Origin: Deferribacterales bacterium
GTDB taxonomy: Bacteria; Chrysiogenota; Deferribacteres; Deferribacterales; Geovibrionaceae
Length of the DNA: 21,856 nucleotides
Reading direction: 5' to 3'
Assembly (NCBI GenBank): GCA_050251945.1
Contig: JBFWLW010000020.1
Span: 1 to 21,856, forward strand
Shown: one piece after another, positions 24 to 21,716 of the stretch
Layout: every line of letters starts with the position of its first letter
Numbering within the stretch: position 1 is the stretch's first letter
Program-made: the position numbers and the translations under genes
The notes under the pieces: model-generated
The model's database searches: none
Seen by the model: only the letters and a program-made list of their open reading frames with translations
Told to the model about the DNA's origin: nothing

Positions 24-2843
24 ATGAGTATCAAAGAAAGACTTTTAGATAAAGCGAATGTGTCCCGCCGTACGTTCCTTAAGGGAGCGAGCGTAGCGGG
101 AGCTACTGCGGCACTTTACGGCTGCGGCGGTGGCGGCGGCGGCAAGACCTACATGGAAGAGGACGAAACCGTCGAGGTACCCAGTATTATAGACGCAACA
201 ATTGTAAAAGGTTCAACACCCCACAACTGCGGCGGACGCTGTGCAAGCAAATATTATATCAAAGACGGCGTTGTTAAAAGAATCGTGACAGACGAAGGCA
301 CTGAAAACAATGCTCTCGGCACAACTTCCAACGATCCCCAGAGACGTTCATGCGTACGCTGCCGTTCAAGAAGACAGTGGTTCTACCGTAATGACCGCGT
401 TCTCTATCCCCTGAAACAGACAGGAACCAGAGGCGATGTCAACGGATTCGTGAGAATTACATGGGAACAGGCTTTCAGCGAAATAGGTACTAAACTTAAA
501 AACGTAGTCGATACATACGGCGCACAGTCTCTGCACTGTGTGTATGCATCTGCGGATTCAACAGGCTGGTCAGGTGCTGCTGTAAACAGACTTTTCAACC
601 TGCTCGGCGGTTCACTGCCTTACAGAGACGACTATTCATGGCCGGCTCTCGACCACGTTGCAACATTTACGGAAGGCGCAGGCTATATTCCTGAAGGAAA
701 CAGCAGAGGCGACGTTGTAAATGCAGAACACGTTTTCCTCTGGTCATACAACGGACTTGAGGCGATCTGGGGGACACAGTCAGGATGGTATCTGACACAG
801 GCACGCGACAGCGGAATCCCCATGACAGCCATCGACACCAGAGTATCGAAAACTGCGGCTACAATAGCCGATGAACTTGTTACCATCGCGCCTACAACAG
901 ACGCCGCACTCATTCTCGGTATGCTGCACTACCTGCTGACAGACAGAATGGCAGACCTTGACGTTACCTTCATCAAAGCACACCTTCACGGTTTCTTTGA
1001 CGATCCCTCTGCAACTTCATACCAGTCGTCTGTTGCCGCAGGAACATACGTTGTACCCAACGGAGCATCGCTTTCAGCGTTCGTAATGGGTAACGTTCTC
1101 CACGCACAAAACGGCGCGGCATCAATATACCCCGACACAATAGGATATAACGTTAACACCTCCGGCACTCTCACCGATCCGCTGGCAGGAAAACGTGCTC
1201 CTATCTACGGTCAGACACCTAAAACACCTGAATGGGCATCGGCAATAACAGGCGTTTCCGCTGATAAAATACGCGATCTGGCAGACACACTGCTTGACAA
1301 AAACTGCTCCATCTGGAACGGTTCGGGCTTCCAGCGCCACTCTGAATCCGAGCAGGCTGTATGGCTTCTCAGAGTTCTTTCCGTTGTCACCAAAAACTTC
1401 GGCGCCGCAGGATGCAGCTACGGTATGCAGCCTTGGAGCTGGGTATCGGGTCCCGGAAACGGCATGAGTGTGTCAAACCCCGTTTCATCAACTCTGGCAT
1501 CAGTTCTTTATGATTCCACAGAGATGACCACAACAGCTTTCTATGCAAACGGCACCAGCAATTCAATCCCTGTTTTCACATGGCTTGATGCTCTTGAAAA
1601 CGGCGGTACCGGTCAGTCAAGATGGAACGACGGTCAGATCAAAGCTCTCCCTGTCGGTATCAAATGTATATTCAACTTTGCCGGCAACGTTCTTGCGAAC
1701 CAGTCAGGCGACGTTAACCTTGCTAAATCCATTCTTGCAGATACAACAAAAGCTGAACTGCTCGTTACATGCGAACACTTCATGACATCATCCGCCATGA
1801 TGTGCGACTACGTTCTCCCCGGCACAATGCAGATGGAGAAACCCGGCGCATCTACAGGCTGGTTCAGTGAAGAAGTTCTCAGTGTTCCAGGCGTACTTGA
1901 TGTACCCGGCGAAGTCAAATCGGAATACGATATCTGTGCAGGTATCGCAGAAGTGCTTGGAATCGGAACTGACTACACCGAAGGCAAAACAATGGAAGAC
2001 AGACTTGCCGCAGGATGGGCTGCCGGTTCTTTTGATATCACTTATGAAGAATTCAAAGAAAAGGGTATATGGAAACCCACTCTGCCTATCACCATCACTT
2101 ACAAAGCTTTCAGGGACGACCCTGCAAATAACCCGCTCAGCACTCCCTCAGGTAAATTCGAGGCCTACGCTCAGTGGATGATGGAAGACTATCAGGCACG
2201 TCATTACGACAACCTTGACAGCTACGGCACACTTGAGAACGCAGGCGTTATCATGGATGCAAAACGCCCCGCAGGTTCAACTTCCATGAGATTTGTGTAC
2301 CCCATCCCCATGTACATCCCCGCTGTTGAGGGAAGACATGCAGACGGAACCCACCCCGACCTGCTCCAAAGGGAAGCCGCGGGCTACACATACACCATGC
2401 ACACATGGCACATGATGTATCGTTCACACTCAACACTTAACAGTGTTGCATACCTGGACGAAAACTATAAAAAGGACATCAACGGCAACGCTGCTTTCCT
2501 TCCGGAAACCAGAACACCTGCTGACGGTAAAGCCATTGCAACGTGGGAAGACGGTGTTTATGAACCTGTATGGGTAAGCCCCATCGACGCCGCGACTCTT
2601 GGTCTTGAAACAGGCGACAGAGTGCTCATCGAAAACGACAGAGGCAAAATATACGCTTCCGTTGTCGTAACACAGCGCGTTCCCCAAAAAGTTCTCTACA
2701 TCGGACAGGGTTCATGGCACAGCAAAGAGAGCGGCATCGACGTAGGCGGATGCGCAAACACACTTACTCATGCACGTCCCTCAAGGATATGTCAGGGTAT
2801 GACGCTGGCAAACGACTGCCGCGTGAAGATCACTAAGGCTTAA
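24..2843 (+). CDS. DMSO reductase family (bis-MGD molybdopterin) oxidoreductase catalytic subunit, DmsA-like, Tat-exported lipoprotein; substrate unknown
   Basis: 939 aa. Tat motif SRRTFLK; lipobox LYG-C34; FS0-type region HNCGGRC...SCVRC; DRVLYPLK; Ser ligand motif DDYS205W aligning to DmsA GDYS; KTPEWA; TPSGKFE; RSHST; C-terminal molybdopterin dinucleotide-binding domain (GDRVLIENDRG...ANTLT). RBS AGGAG at 11-15. Confidence 0.93.
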   Translation: MSIKERLLDKANVSRRTFLKGASVAGATAALYGCGGGGGGKTYMEEDETVEVPSIIDATIVKGSTPHNCGGRCASKYYIKDGVVKRIVTDEGTENNALGTTSNDPQRRSCVRCRSRRQWFYRNDRVLYPLKQTGTRGDVNGFVRITWEQAFSEIGTKLKNVVDTYGAQSLHCVYASADSTGWSGAAVNRLFNLLGGSLPYRDDYSWPALDHVATFTEGAGYIPEGNSRGDVVNAEHVFLWSYNGLEAIWGTQSGWYLTQARDSGIPMTAIDTRVSKTAATIADELVTIAPTTDAALILGMLHYLLTDRMADLDVTFIKAHLHGFFDDPSATSYQSSVAAGTYVVPNGASLSAFVMGNVLHAQNGAASIYPDTIGYNVNTSGTLTDPLAGKRAPIYGQTPKTPEWASAITGVSADKIRDLADTLLDKNCSIWNGSGFQRHSESEQAVWLLRVLSVVTKNFGAAGCSYGMQPWSWVSGPGNGMSVSNPVSSTLASVLYDSTEMTTTAFYANGTSNSIPVFTWLDALENGGTGQSRWNDGQIKALPVGIKCIFNFAGNVLANQSGDVNLAKSILADTTKAELLVTCEHFMTSSAMMCDYVLPGTMQMEKPGASTGWFSEEVLSVPGVLDVPGEVKSEYDICAGIAEVLGIGTDYTEGKTMEDRLAAGWAAGSFDITYEEFKEKGIWKPTLPITITYKAFRDDPANNPLSTPSGKFEAYAQWMMEDYQARHYDNLDSYGTLENAGVIMDAKRPAGSTSMRFVYPIPMYIPAVEGRHADGTHPDLLQREAAGYTYTMHTWHMMYRSHSTLNSVAYLDENYKKDINGNAAFLPETRTPADGKAIATWEDGVYEPVWVSPIDAATLGLETGDRVLIENDRGKIYASVVVTQRVPQKVLYIGQGSWHSKESGIDVGGCANTLTHARPSRICQGMTLANDCRVKITKA

Positions 2844-2857
2844 CAGGGAGGAACCAG

Positions 2858-3478
2858 ATGTCAACCAAACAGATGGCATTTTACTTTGACCAGAATAGAT
2901 GTATGGGCTGCCACGCATGCGTGGTCGCCTGCAAGGACTGGAACGACGTTAAACCCGGACAGGCGAGATGGAGAAGACTCTCTAACGAAGAGGTCGGAAC
3001 CTTCCCTGACGTTAAGGTATTTAACCTCGTAATGTCCTGCAACCACTGCGCAAACCCCGCATGTACGGCGGCTTGTCCTGTGGGAGCGATATACAAGAGA
3101 GAAGAGGACGGCATAGTAATAGTCAACCGCGATATCTGTCAGGATATCAGAGCTTGCCTTGTTGCATGCCCCTACGGCGCGCCCCAGTTCGGCGACGACA
3201 CCAGCGAACCGACGAAAGAGTCAAGCTGGGCAGTTGATCACCCTATGCAGAAATGCACAATGTGCTGGGACAGGCTTGCGGAAGGACTTCTTCCCGCATG
3301 TGTTGCGGCATGTCCTCAGCGTGCGCTTGACTTCGGTACAGCGGCTGAGATAGCGGCGAAATACCCGACTGCAGTCCGTACGGTTGTCGGTTTCCCCGAC
3401 ACTGACAAGGATGCCAACGGCAACACGCTGAAATCAGGCGATACTGTTCCCTCTATTTTCTTCAAACCGAAAAATTAG
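2858..3478 (+). CDS. dmsB: DmsB/NrfC-type four-cluster 4Fe-4S electron-transfer subunit
   Basis: CMGCHACVVACK, SCNHCANPACTAACP, CQDIRACLVACPYGAP, KCTMC...PACVAACP; immediately follows the catalytic subunit with RBS GGAGG. Confidence 0.9.
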   Translation: MSTKQMAFYFDQNRCMGCHACVVACKDWNDVKPGQARWRRLSNEEVGTFPDVKVFNLVMSCNHCANPACTAACPVGAIYKREEDGIVIVNRDICQDIRACLVACPYGAPQFGDDTSEPTKESSWAVDHPMQKCTMCWDRLAEGLLPACVAACPQRALDFGTAAEIAAKYPTAVRTVVGFPDTDKDANGNTLKSGDTVPSIFFKPKN

Positions 3479-3498
3479 AGTAACTGCCTTATAACGTT

Positions 3499-3536
3499 AA
3501 ATGTGCGGCGCGGAGGCGCTCTTGCGTCGCACATTT
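3499..3536 (+). terminator. Stem-loop after dmsB (terminator or mRNA-stabilising hairpin)
   Basis: AAATGTGCGGCGCGGAG...CTCTTGCGTCGCACATTT, imperfect stem with G-U pairs, followed by T-rich sequence. Confidence 0.65.
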
Positions 3537-3654
3537 CCATTACATTTTTTATGGAATTATGGTCGTTATTTTACCTTGATTTAACCGAACAAGGGTTAGA
3601 TTTTATCAAACATGGATGCTGACATCGAAACACAAAATTATTAAAGGCGTATTT

Positions 3655-4965
3655 ATGATAATTGACATTAACAGGAATTCTCTTGACCGGATAATAAATG
3701 ATGATTTCAGAAACGATGCGGAAAGATATGTCCGCATCTATGATGAATTTATGTCTGCTGTCAAGGATTCGGGAATCGACACAGCCGGGCTTCAATCCTC
3801 AACAGGTTTTACATATGAATATTTGGCGGAGAACGTGTCCGGAGTCGAGTGTTCTGGCTTCGGGCACAGCCTTCGTTACGGCGAAGTATCGCCCGCCTGC
3901 GCCGATTGCCGTACGGGACTTACGTCCATGACGGTATTCCATACACTTAAATGCAACAGAGACTGTTTTTTTTGTGCAAACATGAATCAGGATGATTATG
4001 ATCACTACCTCGAGAACGAGAACGATGCGTTTCAAGAGGTGTTGGACGCAGATGGGGGATTCGGTTTTACGTCTATAGCACTGACCGGGGGGGAACCCCT
4101 TCTGCTGCCCGACAAAGCCATAGAGTTCTTTGAAAAATGCAGGGCGAAATATCCGGAAGCTCACCTGCGGCTCTATACCAACGGGGACTTCCTCACCCCC
4201 ATGCTTGCGACAAAGCTCACGAACGCCGGACTGAACGAAGTCCGTATCAGCGTTAAGGTTGAAAGCGACGATTACCCCGCCGATACCGTTGAGGTCATCC
4301 GTTCCGTTGCCGGAATAATACCCGCTGTGATGGTGGAGATGCCTGTTATCCCCGGAACGCTTGAAACAATGAAAAAGCTCTTCGTTGAACTTGATGCTGC
4401 CGGAGCAGACGCCATCAATATCCTTGAATTCCTCTATCCTTGGGTAAACTCCGAAAAGTATGCCAACAGAGGCTTTAAGGTCAAGGAGAGACCATACCGC
4501 GTCCTTTACGATTACGGCTATGCAGGCGGATTGCCTGTCGCCGGAAGCGGTGAGGAGTGTGTTGAACTCCTTAAATTTGCAGCGGAGAAAAAACTCTCCA
4601 TGCGTGTGCATTTCTGCTCTCTGGAAAATAAGCTCACTTCACAGATATTCATCCAGAACAGCAGTGTTCTGCTTACCGATCACGAAGTGATGTCCCCAAG
4701 GGATTTCTTTATAAAATCCGCAAGGGCATACGGCAGCAACGCTCTTAAGGCTCAGAAGTACCTGTCCTCAAAAGGTATTGAGCATGTTACCAGCGGAATC
4801 ATAACTGAGTTCCATCCCAAATACATATCAGAGATAAAAGGGCTGACCGAAGTAGCCGTTACATACAACGTAGTCGAGTTTGATGAAGAGAACCGGAAGG
4901 TTGTTCGCGAGGTCAAGATAGACCTTGTTAAGCCTGAAGAATTTGATTACGAAACAGACATATGA
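3655..4965 (+). CDS. Radical SAM Fe-S protein of unknown function (COG2108-like)
   Basis: CNRDCFFC (CX3CX2C), ALTGGEPLL, LYTNG; extra N-terminal CADC and late HFCS motif. ATG 3655 preceded by AAGG is preferred over the ORF-track start at 3616. Confidence 0.85.
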   Translation: MIIDINRNSLDRIINDDFRNDAERYVRIYDEFMSAVKDSGIDTAGLQSSTGFTYEYLAENVSGVECSGFGHSLRYGEVSPACADCRTGLTSMTVFHTLKCNRDCFFCANMNQDDYDHYLENENDAFQEVLDADGGFGFTSIALTGGEPLLLPDKAIEFFEKCRAKYPEAHLRLYTNGDFLTPMLATKLTNAGLNEVRISVKVESDDYPADTVEVIRSVAGIIPAVMVEMPVIPGTLETMKKLFVELDAAGADAINILEFLYPWVNSEKYANRGFKVKERPYRVLYDYGYAGGLPVAGSGEECVELLKFAAEKKLSMRVHFCSLENKLTSQIFIQNSSVLLTDHEVMSPRDFFIKSARAYGSNALKAQKYLSSKGIEHVTSGIITEFHPKYISEIKGLTEVAVTYNVVEFDEENRKVVREVKIDLVKPEEFDYETDI

Positions 4966-4973
4966 GGTGAAGC

Positions 4974-5657
4974 ATGGACGTTATTGAACTGGCAAACATA
5001 CACAAAGGGCGCAACGTTGCGTTCAATGTATTCTCGAAAGTTTTTTTAGATGTTCCGTCGCCGGAAACAGACAAGTTCTTTACCGACACGGCAAAACACA
5101 TTGAATCCATAGCAATGGCATCCTGCAATTCCGACTTCCAGAACGGCGCAGGACTTCTTAAGACAGTATACGGCAATGCAGGCTATGAGAACACGGATAT
5201 GGAATCAACCCGCCTCCTCAGAAGCAGGGATTTCACAAAACTGTTCGCACTGAACACAATCCCGCTTTATGAGTCTGTATATACTTCTCCTGAAAAACTG
5301 CTGAAACAGGATGCATGGAGCGAAGTAAAAGTTTTCTATTACAGCAATTTCTTTAAACGTATTGACGGCGACAAGACCATAGAGGATCATATTTCTCTGG
5401 AGCTTCAGTTCATGGGTCTTCTCAGTAAAAACATAGCTGAGTGTATCGAAACAGAAAAATTTGAAGCCGCCGAAACCATAATGACGACTCAGAGCGATTT
5501 TTATAAAAGCCATATGCTCCGCTGGGCGCCTCAACTCTGTACCAAGGTCATTGCAGAGGCGGAAAAGCTCAACACACTTTTCTATCCCGCATATGCGTAC
5601 ATGATGAGAGGATTCCTTACGGAAGATTCCGCTTTCCTTGCAGAAATGATGGAGTGA
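4974..5657 (+). CDS. TorD/DmsD family redox enzyme maturation chaperone
   Basis: IPLYESVY and EDHISLELQFM motifs, HMLRWAP; lies in a molybdoenzyme operon. Confidence 0.9.
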   Translation: MDVIELANIHKGRNVAFNVFSKVFLDVPSPETDKFFTDTAKHIESIAMASCNSDFQNGAGLLKTVYGNAGYENTDMESTRLLRSRDFTKLFALNTIPLYESVYTSPEKLLKQDAWSEVKVFYYSNFFKRIDGDKTIEDHISLELQFMGLLSKNIAECIETEKFEAAETIMTTQSDFYKSHMLRWAPQLCTKVIAEAEKLNTLFYPAYAYMMRGFLTEDSAFLAEMME

Positions 5658-5660
5658 TAT

Positions 5661-6656
5661 ATGGGGATTGTTGACGGACTGGTCGGCAGACTAAACGAAT
5701 GTATGGTGACAGACAGCGCCGCCTGTGCAAAGGTGCGGCACAAGCTGTCCAAATGTTCAGCATGCATGGACGTCTGCAAAAACGGCGCAATCCGTATAAC
5801 ATCCGCCGGAGGGAAGGTTCTTGTGGACTGGGACAGATGCAATGCCTGCGGGCAATGCGCCGCCGTATGTCCGAACAGGGTCTTTTCAATGAAGCTGACC
5901 GACGTTGGGAAGCTTATTGTAAATATAAAGCAGCAGATAGCCCGGGACGGGGAATGTATAATCTCCTGTAGAGACGATGCAGACACAGCACACATTCGTT
6001 CCCTGTCCTTTGCTGACAGACAATTACTTGTTAAAACCGCAGTCATGGGAGCCGGAAAGATAACTTTGCGGCAGGGGGATTGCGGCAAATGTTCAAAGGA
6101 CTGCCTCAGAACTGTCGGACAGGAAGCTGAGGCGGCAAACCGTATATTTGAACTGGCTCAGCAGCCTGTTCGCGTCGTTCTGGACGACCCGTCTGAAAAG
6201 AGACCTACTGCCGCCGACAGGCTCAAAAACAAAGGAGAAAGCATCTCCCGCCGCGAGTTCTTCGGTTTCATGCGTACAAAAGCGCGCCGGACCATCGGCG
6301 AAACACTCTATTCACTTGCGGAAAATGAAAAAGACAGAAAACGTACCGTTTTGTCGTCAGACAGGGACGGGCTTGACAGTTATATTTCAAATTTAAAATG
6401 TTTAGGCAGCGATAAGCTCATCAACAGAATGAGGGGGGAGGGCCTTTTGATGAGCGTTGACATAAATATAGACAAATGTACCAGATGCGGCATATGCGCA
6501 AGGGTATGCCCCATGTCGGTTTTTACTGTTTCAAAGGACGTGGTGAAGGGCAGAGAGGTAACCACTGCTGTCACGGCAGACGCAGACCTTTGTTCCGGCT
6601 GCGGTGTGTGCGTTACTGCATGTATGTCCGAAGCCCTGAAAGTATATAAATTATAG
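5661..6656 (+). CDS. Polyferredoxin / 4Fe-4S dicluster domain protein
   Basis: CSACMDVC, CNACGQCAAVCP, CGKC, CTRCGICARVCP, CSGCGVCVTAC; internal SRREFF. Confidence 0.85.
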   Translation: MGIVDGLVGRLNECMVTDSAACAKVRHKLSKCSACMDVCKNGAIRITSAGGKVLVDWDRCNACGQCAAVCPNRVFSMKLTDVGKLIVNIKQQIARDGECIISCRDDADTAHIRSLSFADRQLLVKTAVMGAGKITLRQGDCGKCSKDCLRTVGQEAEAANRIFELAQQPVRVVLDDPSEKRPTAADRLKNKGESISRREFFGFMRTKARRTIGETLYSLAENEKDRKRTVLSSDRDGLDSYISNLKCLGSDKLINRMRGEGLLMSVDINIDKCTRCGICARVCPMSVFTVSKDVVKGREVTTAVTADADLCSGCGVCVTACMSEALKVYKL

Positions 6657-11351: not shown

Positions 11352-11388
11352 CCCCCCCTAAGTCCCCCTTTTATAAAGGGGGACTTAG
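11352..11388. repeat. Perfect 14-bp stem-loop (CCCCCTT/AAGGGGG-type palindrome), probable terminator between convergent genes
   Basis: CTAAGTCCCCCTTT-TAT-AAAGGGGGACTTAG (11358-11388), preceded by a C7 run. Confidence 0.75.
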
Positions 11389-11392
11389 AAGC

Positions 11393-11536
11393 CAGGTTGT
11401 TGACAAATTTGTTAAAAGTTAATGAGATTGCTGCGTCAGCCTATACAGCTTCCTCACAATGACAGCAATTTACGTCTTCGCGAGGAGCGCATGCGACGAC
11501 GCGATCTCACATTTTACTGACTTTGTCGTCAGTCTG
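11393..11536 (-). mobile_element. MITE-like palindromic dispersed repeat, copy 1 (144 bp)
   Basis: Imperfect terminal inverted repeats CAGGTTGTTGACAAA / TTTGTCGTCAGTCTG. Reverse complement matches 21575-21716 (56/63 identical over the first 63 nt by manual alignment). No ORF. Confidence 0.8.
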
Positions 11537-11552
11537 GAGCGGGATCTATTAT

Positions 11553-12731
11553 CTAGTGATGTTTTGTTTCAAGATTAAAGAACTTCTCCGCCGAGAAATA
11601 CAGCAGGAAGAACACTCCGAAACCGAACAGATAAACAAGCCATTCCGTTGCGGAAGGGCTGTAAAGTCGCATCCCGACAAAATCCGTTACAACACCCGCG
11701 CCGAAGAATCCGCCGCGCATGGGAGGAAGCTGTCCGGCGACTATGAAGTCGTATCTGGTGAAGAACAGACCTATAAGATAGATGAAACCTGCAAGGGCAT
11801 ATCTGCCGACGCTTCCGCGCGCAGTAACTATCAGTATCAGCGGTATCGCCACCGCAAGAAGCATCTCGCCGACCCAGAAGTTCAGCGCCAAAGGTCCCTT
11901 CACAAGGGCAACCGCCGCAGTGTATGCGTCTCCGCCGCCTATAAACAGTGACGAGAGAAGCTTCCAGAGATAGAGAAGCATCATCACTCCTATTCCGCCG
12001 CCCATAAGCCTGCCGAGAGATACCATGGATTTGCTTACCTCTTCTGCGAGCTTGCCCTTATACATCACATAATGCACGAGGATAAGGAGAGCCGCTCCGG
12101 CGGTAACGCCTGAAACCACGAGGAATATGGGGAAGTATATGCCGTGAAACCACTGGCGGGCGCTCAGCGAACCGAACACATAGCCTAGGTTGCTTGTGGC
12201 GAGAACTCCCACCAGAAGTGCGAGAAAACCCGCGATAGCCGCGAGCTTGCGGCTTGTATCAGTCTGGTTGGATCTGAACACAAGGAACAGCTCAACAGCC
12301 AGTATGCCAAGCTCTATGCCGTAGAAAGTACCCATCCAGAAAATAGGTGCCGACATATTGGGCGTGAGCATCATATGAAGCATTTTTACGGGACTTCCGA
12401 CTTCCATAAGAATCTGTGTGAAGCCCGCAAGAAGAACTATGGTCGCAAGCACGACTATGCGCCTGCCAATGGGTTCGTACTGTTTGAACCCGAACGCGTG
12501 GGCAAGTCCGCCTATGAAGGCGATGCCCGTTGATATTATAACAAAGTAGGCATAGGTGGCTATCAGAAGCCCCCATGGGATCATACGGGTAACGCCGTAG
12601 CTCTCCTCATGCCCTTTCACAAACACCGATATTACGCCGTATCCGCCTGCTATGCAGAGCAGCAGCCCCAATATCATAAAAAGCAGAGCGGGCATCATGG
12701 CGTTTCTGGTTTCTGTATTTTCAGACATCAT
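11553..12731 (-). CDS. NrfD/PsrC/DsrP family polytopic quinol-interacting membrane subunit
   Basis: PWGLLIATYAYFVIIS.G, EVGSP, SAPIFWM, RYDFIVAGQ, YSPSATEW; about 10 hydrophobic segments. Confidence 0.9.
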   Translation of the reverse strand: MMSENTETRNAMMPALLFMILGLLLCIAGGYGVISVFVKGHEESYGVTRMIPWGLLIATYAYFVIISTGIAFIGGLAHAFGFKQYEPIGRRIVVLATIVLLAGFTQILMEVGSPVKMLHMMLTPNMSAPIFWMGTFYGIELGILAVELFLVFRSNQTDTSRKLAAIAGFLALLVGVLATSNLGYVFGSLSARQWFHGIYFPIFLVVSGVTAGAALLILVHYVMYKGKLAEEVSKSMVSLGRLMGGGIGVMMLLYLWKLLSSLFIGGGDAYTAAVALVKGPLALNFWVGEMLLAVAIPLILIVTARGSVGRYALAGFIYLIGLFFTRYDFIVAGQLPPMRGGFFGAGVVTDFVGMRLYSPSATEWLVYLFGFGVFFLLYFSAEKFFNLETKHH

Positions 12732-12737
12732 TTCCTC

Positions 12738-13427
12738 CTAAACGTCCTGCGTGTAATAAACGTTGCAGAGTGTTCCCTCTTCCGGTTTCAGAGTGTGGTA
12801 TGCCACAGCTTCTTTCATTATCTTTGAAACCTCGGATTCAGGGTCTGCAAGGTCGCCGAATATTCTGGCGTTCTTATAGCAGGATTCCACACATGCCGTG
12901 GTTTTACCCTCTTTGAGCCTTGGCAGGCAGAAGGTGCATTTGTCAACCGAGTGGATGTTTTCGTTGTAGTATCTCGCGTCGTAAGGACAGGCGAGCATAC
13001 ATGTTTTGCATCCCATGCATTTGTCCTGCCTGATGAGAACTATGCCGTCTTCTTCGCGTTTAAAGCTTGCCCTTGTGGGGCATACCTTGACACATGGCGG
13101 GTTGTCGCACTGGTTGCAGAGAACGGGAAGCCATGTCATTTTTGACGAATAGCTCTGCGCTCTGGCTGTGTAGAGCACTTTTGTTCTGTAAAGCTCGGGG
13201 TCTTTGGGGACGTTCCAAGCTGCTTTGCACGCAACCTCGCAGGCTTTGCAGCCGATGCATCTGTCCTGCACGATTATCATTGCGTAGTTATGCTTCTTTT
13301 CGGGTTTTCCGCTTGTTGTGGTTTCAAACGGATCCCATTCGTATTTATTATCGAAAACGGCAGGCATGGGCAGAAACGAATAGAGCGTTATCGTACCCAG
13401 ACCTTTCACAAAATATCTTCTGTTCAT
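12738..13427 (-). CDS. NrfC/PsrB family 4Fe-4S dicluster protein with Tat-like N-terminus
   Basis: NRRYFVK; CIGCKACEVAC, LCNQCDNPPCVKVCP, CMGCKTCMLACPY, KCTFC...ACVESC; RBS AGGAG. Confidence 0.92.
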   Translation of the reverse strand: MNRRYFVKGLGTITLYSFLPMPAVFDNKYEWDPFETTTSGKPEKKHNYAMIIVQDRCIGCKACEVACKAAWNVPKDPELYRTKVLYTARAQSYSSKMTWLPVLCNQCDNPPCVKVCPTRASFKREEDGIVLIRQDKCMGCKTCMLACPYDARYYNENIHSVDKCTFCLPRLKEGKTTACVESCYKNARIFGDLADPESEVSKIMKEAVAYHTLKPEEGTLCNVYYTQDV

Positions 13428-13446
13428 GGTTTTAGCTCCTTAAGAA

Positions 13447-14226
13447 TTATTTTTTGACAAATCCGGGAGCTTTCGGAACGTTCTTACCGTGGCAGTCGGC
13501 GCAGTTGTATTGTGCGGTGGTGCCGACCTCCTTGCCTCCTGTCCAGGCAGGATGTTCTGCTATCTCTTTGTCGTCGTGTATCCTGTTGAGATACTGAACG
13601 ACCTTATATGCAACAGAGGCTGATACACGTGCGCATCTGTCCTTTCTTTCAGGACTGCCGAGGGCTTTGTCTGCCTTCTTCATCCATTTGCTGACGGAAA
13701 CGTGGCAAAGCGGGGAATTGCTCACTGTGTGTTCGATGCTGTCCTTGTTTGCCTGCGGGTCTTTGGGAACGTAGATGGGCATGTTCGCATGGCTGTACCA
13801 GTTGAACGTATCGGAAACCACCGTGTGTGTGCGGTCTTCCCACGTCGGTGGACCGACAATAAGGCTTACTACAACGGATGCGCCGTTGACAGATCCGCAG
13901 GTTGTACCCCAGCTTGCGATACCGCCTTCAAATATGGCGAATGATTCAACGGGAAACGATTTGTAAGGTTCGCCTACTTTTTTTGCAAGCTGATCGAAAA
14001 TTGAAAACATAACTGTTCCGCCGCAGCCGAGGTTATACCATTGTTTGTAGGCTATCTCAGCCGTTTCTGCCGGGTCGAGTTTTACATAAGGCCAAGGCCA
14101 TGTCTTGGCAAGCGGTTCTTCGTCCGAAGCCTCTGCTGAGCTTACGGCGAATTTTCCGGCAAAAGCACCCGCGCCCAAAAGCGCCGCCTTTGCCAGAATG
14201 TCTCTGCGGGATATCTTTGCATCCAT
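13447..14226 (-). CDS. Split-Soret cytochrome c-like protein (C_GCAxxG_C_C family) with Tat signal and C-terminal CXXCH
   Basis: SRRDILAK; WPWPYVKLDP; GCGG, WGTTCGSVNG, SPLCHVSVSKW, ERKDRCAR; C-terminal CADCH; RBS GGAGG. Confidence 0.85.
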   Translation of the reverse strand: MDAKISRRDILAKAALLGAGAFAGKFAVSSAEASDEEPLAKTWPWPYVKLDPAETAEIAYKQWYNLGCGGTVMFSIFDQLAKKVGEPYKSFPVESFAIFEGGIASWGTTCGSVNGASVVVSLIVGPPTWEDRTHTVVSDTFNWYSHANMPIYVPKDPQANKDSIEHTVSNSPLCHVSVSKWMKKADKALGSPERKDRCARVSASVAYKVVQYLNRIHDDKEIAEHPAWTGGKEVGTTAQYNCADCHGKNVPKAPGFVKK

Positions 14227-14244
14227 AATTAAACCTCCGAATGA

Positions 14245-14270
14245 ATCGTTATATAAAATTTTATATAACG
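14245..14270. promoter_or_regulatory. Putative ModE-type operator (perfect 24-bp palindrome at 14247-14270)
   Basis: ATCGTTATATA-AAATTT-TATATAACG matches the ModE consensus CG(C/T)TATATA-N6-TATATA(A/G)CG; ends about 20 bp upstream of the 14226 start codon. Confidence 0.65.
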
Positions 14271-14280
14271 CAAGATGCTT

Positions 14281-14310
14281 AAAAAAATTACGGTTATGTG
14301 GGCATAACCG
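14281..14310 (-). terminator. Intrinsic-terminator-like hairpin upstream of the cytochrome operon
   Basis: Minus strand CGGTTATG-CCCA-CATAACCG-TAATTTTTTT. Confidence 0.5.
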
Positions 14311-14535
14311 CTTATAGAAAGCTTCATAATGGACTGTATATATATCTTTGTATATTCCGTCAATACAATATTGTTAGAGATATGACCGGAGAAATCCCTG
14401 TATTTTTCAGAGTTTTTACAACATCATGTCAACTATGACCAATATAAGAATTGTTTTTAGAGAAAAATAACGAAAAAATCGTAACTTCTTAATGATACTA
14501 AAACTATCTTAAAGAAAGTGTTAAGAAACTCCGCG

Positions 14536-21552: not shown

Positions 21553-21574
21553 CCCGCCCCTTAAAAGGCGGCTT
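21553..21574 (+). terminator. Short hairpin after the PPIase gene
   Basis: CCGCC-CCTTAAAA-GGCGG, directly abutting the MITE-like element. Confidence 0.4.
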
Positions 21575-21716
21575 CAGACTGATGACAAAGTCAGGAAAAT
21601 CCGAGATCGCGTCGTCGCATGCAGTCCTCGTGAAGACAAAAAACCGTCTCTGCGAGGAGCATGGCTACGAAGCAGTCTCATTGGATTTCATCAAAATTGA
21701 GTTTGTCAATAACCTG
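21575..21716 (+). mobile_element. MITE-like palindromic dispersed repeat, copy 2 (142 bp)
   Basis: TIRs CAGACTGATGACAAA / TTTGTCAATAACCTG; inverted homolog of 11393-11536; two head-to-head internal units at 21603-21637 and 21646-21679. Confidence 0.8.

Follow-up and report, generated by a model that had tools for sequence, protein, structure and literature searches.

A mono-heme relative of split-Soret cytochrome c, putative head of an NrfCD conduit, beneath a conserved ModE-type operator in Geovibrionaceae

PsrABC and PhsABC, the closest described relatives of the system treated here, are built from a head subunit, a protein with four [4Fe-4S] clusters and an NrfD-type membrane anchor, in that order. 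Here, we examine a 21,856-nucleotide stretch of DNA from a Deferribacterales bacterium of the family Geovibrionaceae (contig JBFWLW010000020.1; the whole stretch is called the window), in which an operon of three genes, S, C and D, keeps this order, with D falling among the psrC anchors and C with PhsB-like subunits. Unlike PsrABC and PhsABC, S-C-D has no molybdopterin subunit, its head S being a 259-residue protein with heme c, its C has a twin-arginine translocation (Tat) leader of its own, and an operator of the regulator ModE lies in a repressing position. The module would work like PsrABC without being a member of that group, having no subunit with the molybdenum-bis(pyranopterin guanine dinucleotide) (Mo-bisPGD) cofactor; its novelty lies in the head, set on an NrfCD conduit of known type behind a ModE operator that is conserved.

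The head itself is related to the split-Soret cytochrome c of Desulfovibrio desulfuricans (1H21), with which it shares the fold, four cysteines, a Cys-His pair, the last CxxCH motif and a Tat-type leader, but it has neither the first CxxCH nor the C-terminal His found in most di-heme forms, and it differs further in being linked to nrfCD and a ModE box. To our knowledge, the split-Soret family has been without a function since the 1990s. Molybdenum (Mo)-free heads on an NrfC/NrfD pair are described for MccACD, NhcABCD and NrfABCD, whose heads are, in contrast, multiheme cytochromes unrelated to PF09719, the family of S; the accessible part of a review of NrfD complexes holds none with a Soret-type head (PMC8076601). 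A precedent for Mo-free polysulfide reduction by heme together with Cys or selenocysteine is given by the polysulfide reductase MccSep which, unlike S, is a pentaheme tetramer, as far as the available portion of that paper describes it (PMC13510729); no kinship between MccSep and S was found, no test aimed at it having been made.

Regulation offers a further parallel, that of cofactor-sparing isoenzymes and alternative nitrogenases, in which a cofactor represses the cofactor-free enzyme. ModE and MopA, for instance, repress the anf and vnf genes of the alternative nitrogenases. Cases involving B12, nickel and iron appear in the part of the literature seen (PMC545781). What would set S-C-D apart from these is that the enzyme spared is a respiratory Mo enzyme and that the proposed substitute has a non-homologous catalytic subunit. 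A paper on the Deferribacterota treats local nrfD operons as candidate polysulfide reductases, with S unmentioned in its accessible part (PMC11896075), and our literature searches, whose coverage ended short of the original split-Soret papers and RegPrecise-type regulon tables, returned no paper tying split-Soret proteins or PF09719 to nrfCD or ModE.

A putative mono-heme head on a Psr-type conduit

S matches PF09719 (the C_GCAxxG_C_C family) with 40.6 bits against a gathering threshold of 27 bits (E 3e-10), which places it in the family, and its sole solved relative is 1H21 (phmmer E 5e-34, Foldseek E 5e-13; structural comparison, VIA Z 26.7, rmsd 3.8 over 210 residues). Weak fold matches to serine dehydratase, PrpD and CyuA (Z 4.3-5.4) lie within noise and were set aside. 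The single CxxCH of S, at residues 242-246, aligns with the second of the two motifs of 1H21, the segment that carries the first being absent, and one such motif is present in 119 of 120 close homologs, with two in 85 of 121 full-length distant representatives. The original prediction, made from the window's letters, had called S a split-Soret cytochrome; its placement in PF09719 and with the 1H21 fold stands, while the name itself does not, because only one of the two heme motifs is kept and S scores 153 bits on the split-Soret equivalog model NF047622, under the cut-off of 400. By these sequence features, S is assigned to a mono-heme branch of the family. Residues invariant in the alignment are Cys68, Cys110, Cys174, His175 and Cys198, and the four cysteines form a putative site that is presumed, from the title of 1H21, to be an Fe-S centre. 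The twin-arginine leader (SRRDILAK) was read by eye, the Pfam TAT_signal model giving no call on it. In one di-heme homolog (L291, G278:C27:200017-200808) an in-frame TGA, a candidate selenocysteine codon, falls at the Cys68 position, and PF09719 is listed among selenoproteins in the accessible part of one paper (PMC9312934). A second homolog, G388:C8, also has one TGA within its match.

The remaining two proteins are, as predicted, an NrfC/NrfD-type pair. C matches Fer4_11 and other 4Fe-4S models, and its 16 cluster cysteines are conserved in the alignment, corresponding to four [4Fe-4S] clusters; its 40-residue leader is of the twin-arginine type (NRRYFVK, by eye), a leader that psrB does not have. 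D matches PF03916 (NrfD, E 3e-27), has ten hydrophobic segments, where the NrfD/PsrC family has 8-10 helices, and shares the fold of ActC (TM 0.83) and PsrC (2VPW), all of which assign it to that family; sequence searches of the Protein Data Bank (PDB) with D and its profile gave nothing useful. By motif spacing, the acidic Glu110 and the gate Arg326 of the quinone site are present, with Ala128 in place of a conserved Ser. No gene for a Mo-bisPGD catalytic subunit (PF00384) lies within S-C-D.

Ancestry ties both partners to Psr- and Phs-type enzymes, and here the prediction of a Psr-like module with a Mo-free head is supported. Nearly every relative of D is the anchor of an A-B-C operon, with an A subunit for which PhsA is the best fit, at a score below the cut-off for PhsA. 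In a tree of 33 rows the seven S-linked D proteins fall into a single clade (98/97), the sister group of which is psrC of genus g3 (98/94), and D thus appears to derive from psrC-type anchors. The same genome has a complete psrABC, the anchor of which is 57% identical to D, and psrA beside such a D-paralog anchor is kept in all eight Geovibrionaceae carriers of S. C has a different affiliation, sharing 61% identity with the Fe-S subunit of a Desulfurella Tat Mo enzyme that has no anchor gene, and not grouping with the local psrB; eleven S-linked C proteins and three Desulfurella PhsB-like subunits form one clade (support 99/98), with branching inside it so poorly resolved that the tree does not fix the direction of duplication.

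The anchorless Desulfurella Mo enzyme best fits PhsA, and it may, going by description only, be the PhsAB of D. amilsii, which is likewise anchorless and, according to the part of that study seen, reaches an abundance 8.3-fold higher with thiosulfate than with sulfur (PMC6378623). Each of three Desulfurella genomes checked has one full-length NrfD gene, which stands alone and is 32-33% identical to D, and two heads, one with Mo and one without, could share it.

A prediction of two copies of S with one of C, heme and 2Fe-2S included, scored 0.58, with 0.00 for the best control, at least 95% contact agreement between runs and a partner predicted local distance difference test (pLDDT) value of at least 86. 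Among reference pairs, 116 of 157 solved pairs and 2 of 215 mismatched pairs reached the mark; at scores of 0.60 or less just 18 solved pairs did so, along with both mismatches, and the counts are rough for alignments of our own. The modelling thus lends weak support to an S2-C complex, and no solved complex of such a pair was found by sequence and fold searches of the PDB. The three-subunit oxidoreductase proposed originally gains to this extent from the model, and we consider that S, C and D probably do form one complex.

A ModE-type operator in a predicted repressing position

The operator was absent from the original prediction and reframes the finding. A repeat search revealed a perfect palindrome 20 nt upstream of the S start codon, the sole such match in the window (0 expected), which agrees at 18 of 20 defined positions with the ModE consensus as published in the portions of two papers available (PMC545781, PMC2700814). 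In a matrix built from 14 mod-gene sites, themselves found with the window's own pattern, it is the top-scoring site of its genome at 33.6 bits, ahead of those of modE-modABC and a second modA (27.6 and 27.2 bits), which have one and two such boxes, respectively. The genome encodes a full-length ModE with a TOBE domain (C2:144985-145713), and genes that carry the motif in five further genomes include modA, modC and modE. A consensus operator at the promoter, a ModE gene in the genome and an equal motif at mod genes together mark S-C-D as a predicted member of the ModE regulon.

Across two phyla the box is found at 15 of 15 S-C-D, S-C and contig-end promoters, with 18-34 bits and lying 16-22 nt from the ATG at 13 of them (62 nt in L103; about 23 nt in L239, after correction of the start). 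Sites of at least 15 bits were found in none of 599 background regions, in none of six di-heme paralogs and at one of 22 psrA-type promoters; 15/15 against 0/599 overstates independence, because training used the window pattern and the promoters include near-duplicates. The S box is also the best genomic site in Desulfurella acetivorans and in genome G032. Pattern matches with three mismatches are in part due to chance (9 from the reversed control against 8 in G026, and likewise 6 against 4 in G070), and our conclusions are based on the stronger sites and the matrix.

The position of the box is informative in itself. Activation is excluded by geometry, because 20 nt cannot hold a sigma-70 promoter, and since no promoter fits between the box and the ribosome site we infer repression by Mo-loaded ModE; the boxes of modA and modE share this geometry. 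Judged from box position, repression of S-C-D in the presence of Mo is likely. A promoter scan stayed at chance level (5 against 4.5). Reciprocal activation of psrA by ModE was considered and rejected, with only one of 22 promoters boxed. A strong box does stand 262 nt upstream of psrA in G032 (L266, G032:C9:119841), where it is possibly activating.

Further ModE-like boxes (G000 C3:81111, C1:74120, C4:226952, C7:131850 and C4:128335; L253, L254, L259, L267, L270 and L272) precede a lipoprotein-TonB receptor cluster, TonB receptors, phosphonate-type ABC binding proteins and unknown genes, which are possible new Mo-uptake systems.

Distribution and surroundings of the operon

The three minus-strand open reading frames are co-oriented, and their coordinates (Table 1) bear out the gaps of 19 bp (S/C) and 6 bp (C/D) noted originally. 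Only 151-bp pieces from two sequencing runs presumed to be RNA fall on S, C and D; one spans the C-D junction, and these pieces do not demonstrate a single transcript. The arrangement is non-random because it is intact in five further genomes and two metagenome contigs; the nearest titled record for S is a homolog in a Seleniivibrio genome, 99% identical.

Table 1. Features of the S-C-D locus, in window positions
Feature	Position	Strand	Description
S	13447..14226	-	259 aa; PF09719; mono-heme relative of split-Soret cytochrome c
C	12738..13427	-	229 aa; NrfC/PsrB/PhsB-type Fe-S protein
D	11553..12731	-	392 aa; NrfD/PsrC-type anchor, putative quinone-reactive
ModE-type operator	14245..14272 (core 14247-14270)		9-bp inverted repeat, 6-bp spacer; 20 nt 5' of S start codon
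Ribosome binding site GGAGG	14234..14238	-	7 nt 5' of S ATG; equal spacing to box in relatives
Second inverted repeat	14290..14311		ModE-like half-sites, short spacer
Palindromic repeat element	11416..11545		multicopy, 3' of D; operon-unspecific
14-bp perfect hairpin	11358..11388		between D and convergent pqiB; likely terminator

PF09719 proteins occur in 10 of 68 genomes of the phylum, and the mono-heme type in eight of these, all Geovibrionaceae, six with S-C-D intact and two with S at contig ends; in four Desulfurella genomes S and C occur without D. The wider linkage survey comprised the best 80 of 373 loci together with 30 loci each, with 1.5-kb flanks, from Desulfobacterota and Nitrospirota samples (28/251 and 42/151 genomes), Bacillota and archaea lying outside the sampling. 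Among the 61 of those best 80 loci whose downstream flank reaches 2 kb or more, four have C after S and two have D, every C- or D-linked locus belonging to Geovibrionaceae or Desulfurella, and C-D linkage was found at none of the 30 Desulfobacterota and none of the 30 Nitrospirota loci. With linkage this narrow (4/61, 2/61, 0/30 and 0/30), we reject nrfCD linkage as a property of PF09719 at large, and with it the suggestion that the operon reveals a physiological partner for the orphan family in general; S-C-D is a real, lineage-limited module. Unlinked S genes have mixed neighbours, including a YeeE transporter at 7 of 72 loci, modE-like genes at 5 of 72 and modA at three; TusA lies near S at five loci, class III cytochromes adjoin it at four and a rhodanese gene follows S-C in L025. 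In one Desulfurellales genome a decayed S remnant (L240, G077:C18:1062959-1063218) stands upstream of a rhodanese gene, with no C gene found there.

In a second module of the family, a cytochrome b gene (PF01292) follows the gene of a di-heme, split-Soret-like protein whose C-terminal membrane tail has a conserved His at its end; the module occurs at eight loci of three phyla (G000:C3:52037-53771, that is L111, and L113, L114, L115, L117, L218, L237 and L238), has no ModE box and would be a second route from PF09719 to the quinone pool. The tail presumably resembles the anchors of hydrogenase small subunits, and a PDB sequence search with the cytochrome b gave nothing useful. Other di-heme homologs (P0256, P0263, P0283, P0363 and P0370) carry C-terminal fusions that by eye resemble secretion-sorting or Ig-like tails, hinting at surface-exposed forms. 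In family f8 of the Deferribacterota (L108 and L116, from G066 and G067) a di-heme S is followed by a YeiH-type membrane gene (PF03601) and then by dsrAB- and dsrC/M/K-like genes, the dsr names having been read from sequence by eye.

Elsewhere in the window, positions 24-6656 encode a DmsA-like Tat protein (its leader followed, as read by eye, by a Cys of lipoprotein type), DmsB, a radical S-adenosylmethionine (SAM) protein, a TorD-like chaperone and a polyferredoxin, with no anchor seen for this cluster; three DmsA-like paralogs in the genome are preceded by small cytochromes with 5-6 hemes. The repeat element downstream of D belongs to a family resembling repetitive extragenic palindromes (REP), with a further copy at about 21571-21682 and 148 blastn pieces genome-wide. 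Short ModE-like helix-turn-helix genes run convergent with D in two genomes (L103:8201-8587 and L107:7892-8266), and in G028 an array of clustered regularly interspaced short palindromic repeats (CRISPR)-like units with cas-like genes, by eye, lies directly upstream of S-C-D (L107:2111-4981).

A candidate molybdenum-sparing role, its rivals and its significance

The genes and their motifs are shown here, as are the operator's conservation, the descent of C and D and the co-occurrence with psrABC; on this footing we tentatively propose, at a little under even chances, that S-C-D serves in Mo starvation, with a Mo-free head replacing PhsA or PsrA on a menaquinol conduit. In this scheme, S-C-D would be a periplasm-facing menaquinol oxidoreductase produced when molybdate is scarce. 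With Mo present, ModE bound to the operator beside the ribosome site would repress S-C-D while psrABC (and phsAB in Desulfurella) is active; with Mo absent, electrons taken from menaquinol at D would travel along the four [4Fe-4S] clusters in C and on to a dimer of S, in which heme c (with His246 and His175) and the four-Cys iron site would stand in for the Mo centre. The Cys174-His175 pair could couple that site to the heme, and the S-S substrate that S reduces would be thiosulfate or polysulfide. Direction and substrate are read from partner ancestry and neighbours and are no firmer than the scheme as a whole. More doubtful still, if plausible, is that S represents a new class of Mo-free thiosulfate or polysulfide reductase, based on heme c and a Cys4 iron site (some homologs having selenocysteine), which would use the Fe-S and anchor partners of PhsA/PsrA and come on in Mo starvation; YeeE (7/72), TusA (five loci), the rhodanese of L025 and the TGA at the Cys68 position are hints of sulfur chemistry, and polysulfide reduction by a heme enzyme with Cys and Sec is possible, according to the accessible part of one study (PMC13510729).

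Several observations weigh against this proposal. Most mono-heme S genes carry neither C-D nor the box, which stands upstream of S in 8 of the 72 unlinked loci, in 2 of 30 Desulfobacterota loci and in none of 30 Nitrospirota loci; the operator statistics suffer from near-duplicate promoters and from a matrix trained on sites found with the window's own pattern, although the box is still conserved in two phyla. The only ModE of Desulfurella is a short form that lacks the Mo-binding domain, and a reciprocal switch is not general because psrA is mostly without a box. At three loci (L060, L071 and L210) a boxed S, the box 60-77 nt upstream, precedes related NADH/FAD/Fe-S genes, and the 1040-residue NADH-linked protein at L071 carries a molybdopterin domain, a poor fit to simple Mo-sparing. 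By motif spacing, D has Ala128 where other NrfD proteins have the quinone-site Ser (PMC8076601, in part), though Ala is common to all 33 aligned relatives, psrC included. Finally, in the portions of the literature available, the one family member that has been studied figures as an electron carrier (PMC5701242, 10.1101/005694, PMC8359318); its expression is reportedly higher with nitrate than with sulfate (cited in PMC5701242), and its mutation in D. alaskensis had little phenotypic effect (10.1101/005694).

The description as a carrier suits a Mo-repressed relay without catalysis, the strongest competitor if still an unlikely one, in which S would be a carrier like NhcA or ActA and, on failure of the Mo enzymes, would link the menaquinone pool by electron transfer to further periplasmic cytochromes or enzymes that are free of Mo. 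A carrier role is what the accessible parts of two sources assign to PF09719 (PMC8359318, 10.1101/005694). Class III cytochromes beside S at four loci, a genome rich in multiheme cytochromes and the pairing of di-heme tail-anchored paralogs with cytochrome b at eight loci of three phyla are all in keeping with such a relay, whereas the recruitment of both C and D from PhsA/PsrA-type operons speaks against it and the sulfur-transfer neighbours and the TGA at Cys68 are left unexplained.

We hold it improbable that S-C-D is a device for Mo acquisition, by redox release of molybdate or tungstate (from thiomolybdate in sulfidic water, for example) or by metal binding. Most other boxed genes are indeed uptake genes (modA, TonB receptors and ABC binding proteins), and modE-like genes lie near S at 5 of 72 unlinked loci (with modA at three) and adjoin S-C-D in L103 and L107, but a Pfam scan found no Mo-binding domain in S, C or D, and the ancestry of C and D is respiratory. 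Poorer still are the prospects of the reverse direction, a Mo-free dehydrogenase passing electrons from sulfide, sulfite or another donor to menaquinone in place of a Mo or tungsten donor enzyme. NrfCD modules do run both ways, as in Qrc, Soe and Hyb (PMC8076601, in its accessible part), and boxed S genes precede NADH-linked genes at three loci, one with a molybdopterin domain; yet C has Thr142 where QrcC has the Tyr needed for quinone reduction (a position assigned by motif, not structure), and its relatives are of the Psr/Phs type. Least credible is the alternative offered originally, that S-C-D feeds the anchorless DmsAB-like or glucose-methanol-choline (GMC) enzymes, which lie within 9 kb in the window in an arrangement kept in G034: this neighbourhood is limited to the nearest genomes, the 10-12-kb flanks of G026, G032 and G028 having no GMC gene and those of G032 and G028 no Mo-enzyme gene (G026 has two, 4-7 kb away), three DmsA-like paralogs have a small multiheme gene of their own upstream, and the promoter geometry predicts that Mo would shut S-C-D off just when DmsA is active.

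For the split-Soret family, the locus points to Mo-free medium as the condition to study, to ModE as regulator, to NrfCD as partners and to a set of candidate substrates, and repression by Mo may explain silent mutants and proteomes in ordinary, Mo-replete media. Desulfurella acetivorans and Seleniivibrio are cultured, making these predictions testable. Should S prove to be only a carrier, the NrfCD family would still gain a new head, and the ModE regulon an operon of respiratory type. If the Mo-sparing proposal is true, it would extend the strategy of the alternative nitrogenases to anaerobic respiration and give the split-Soret/PF09719 family its first catalytic role. Mo is scarce in sulfidic waters, which sulfur respirers inhabit, and a Mo-free back-up for Psr and Phs would, if real, matter for the sulfur cycle and bear on ideas of respiration in Mo-poor ancient oceans.

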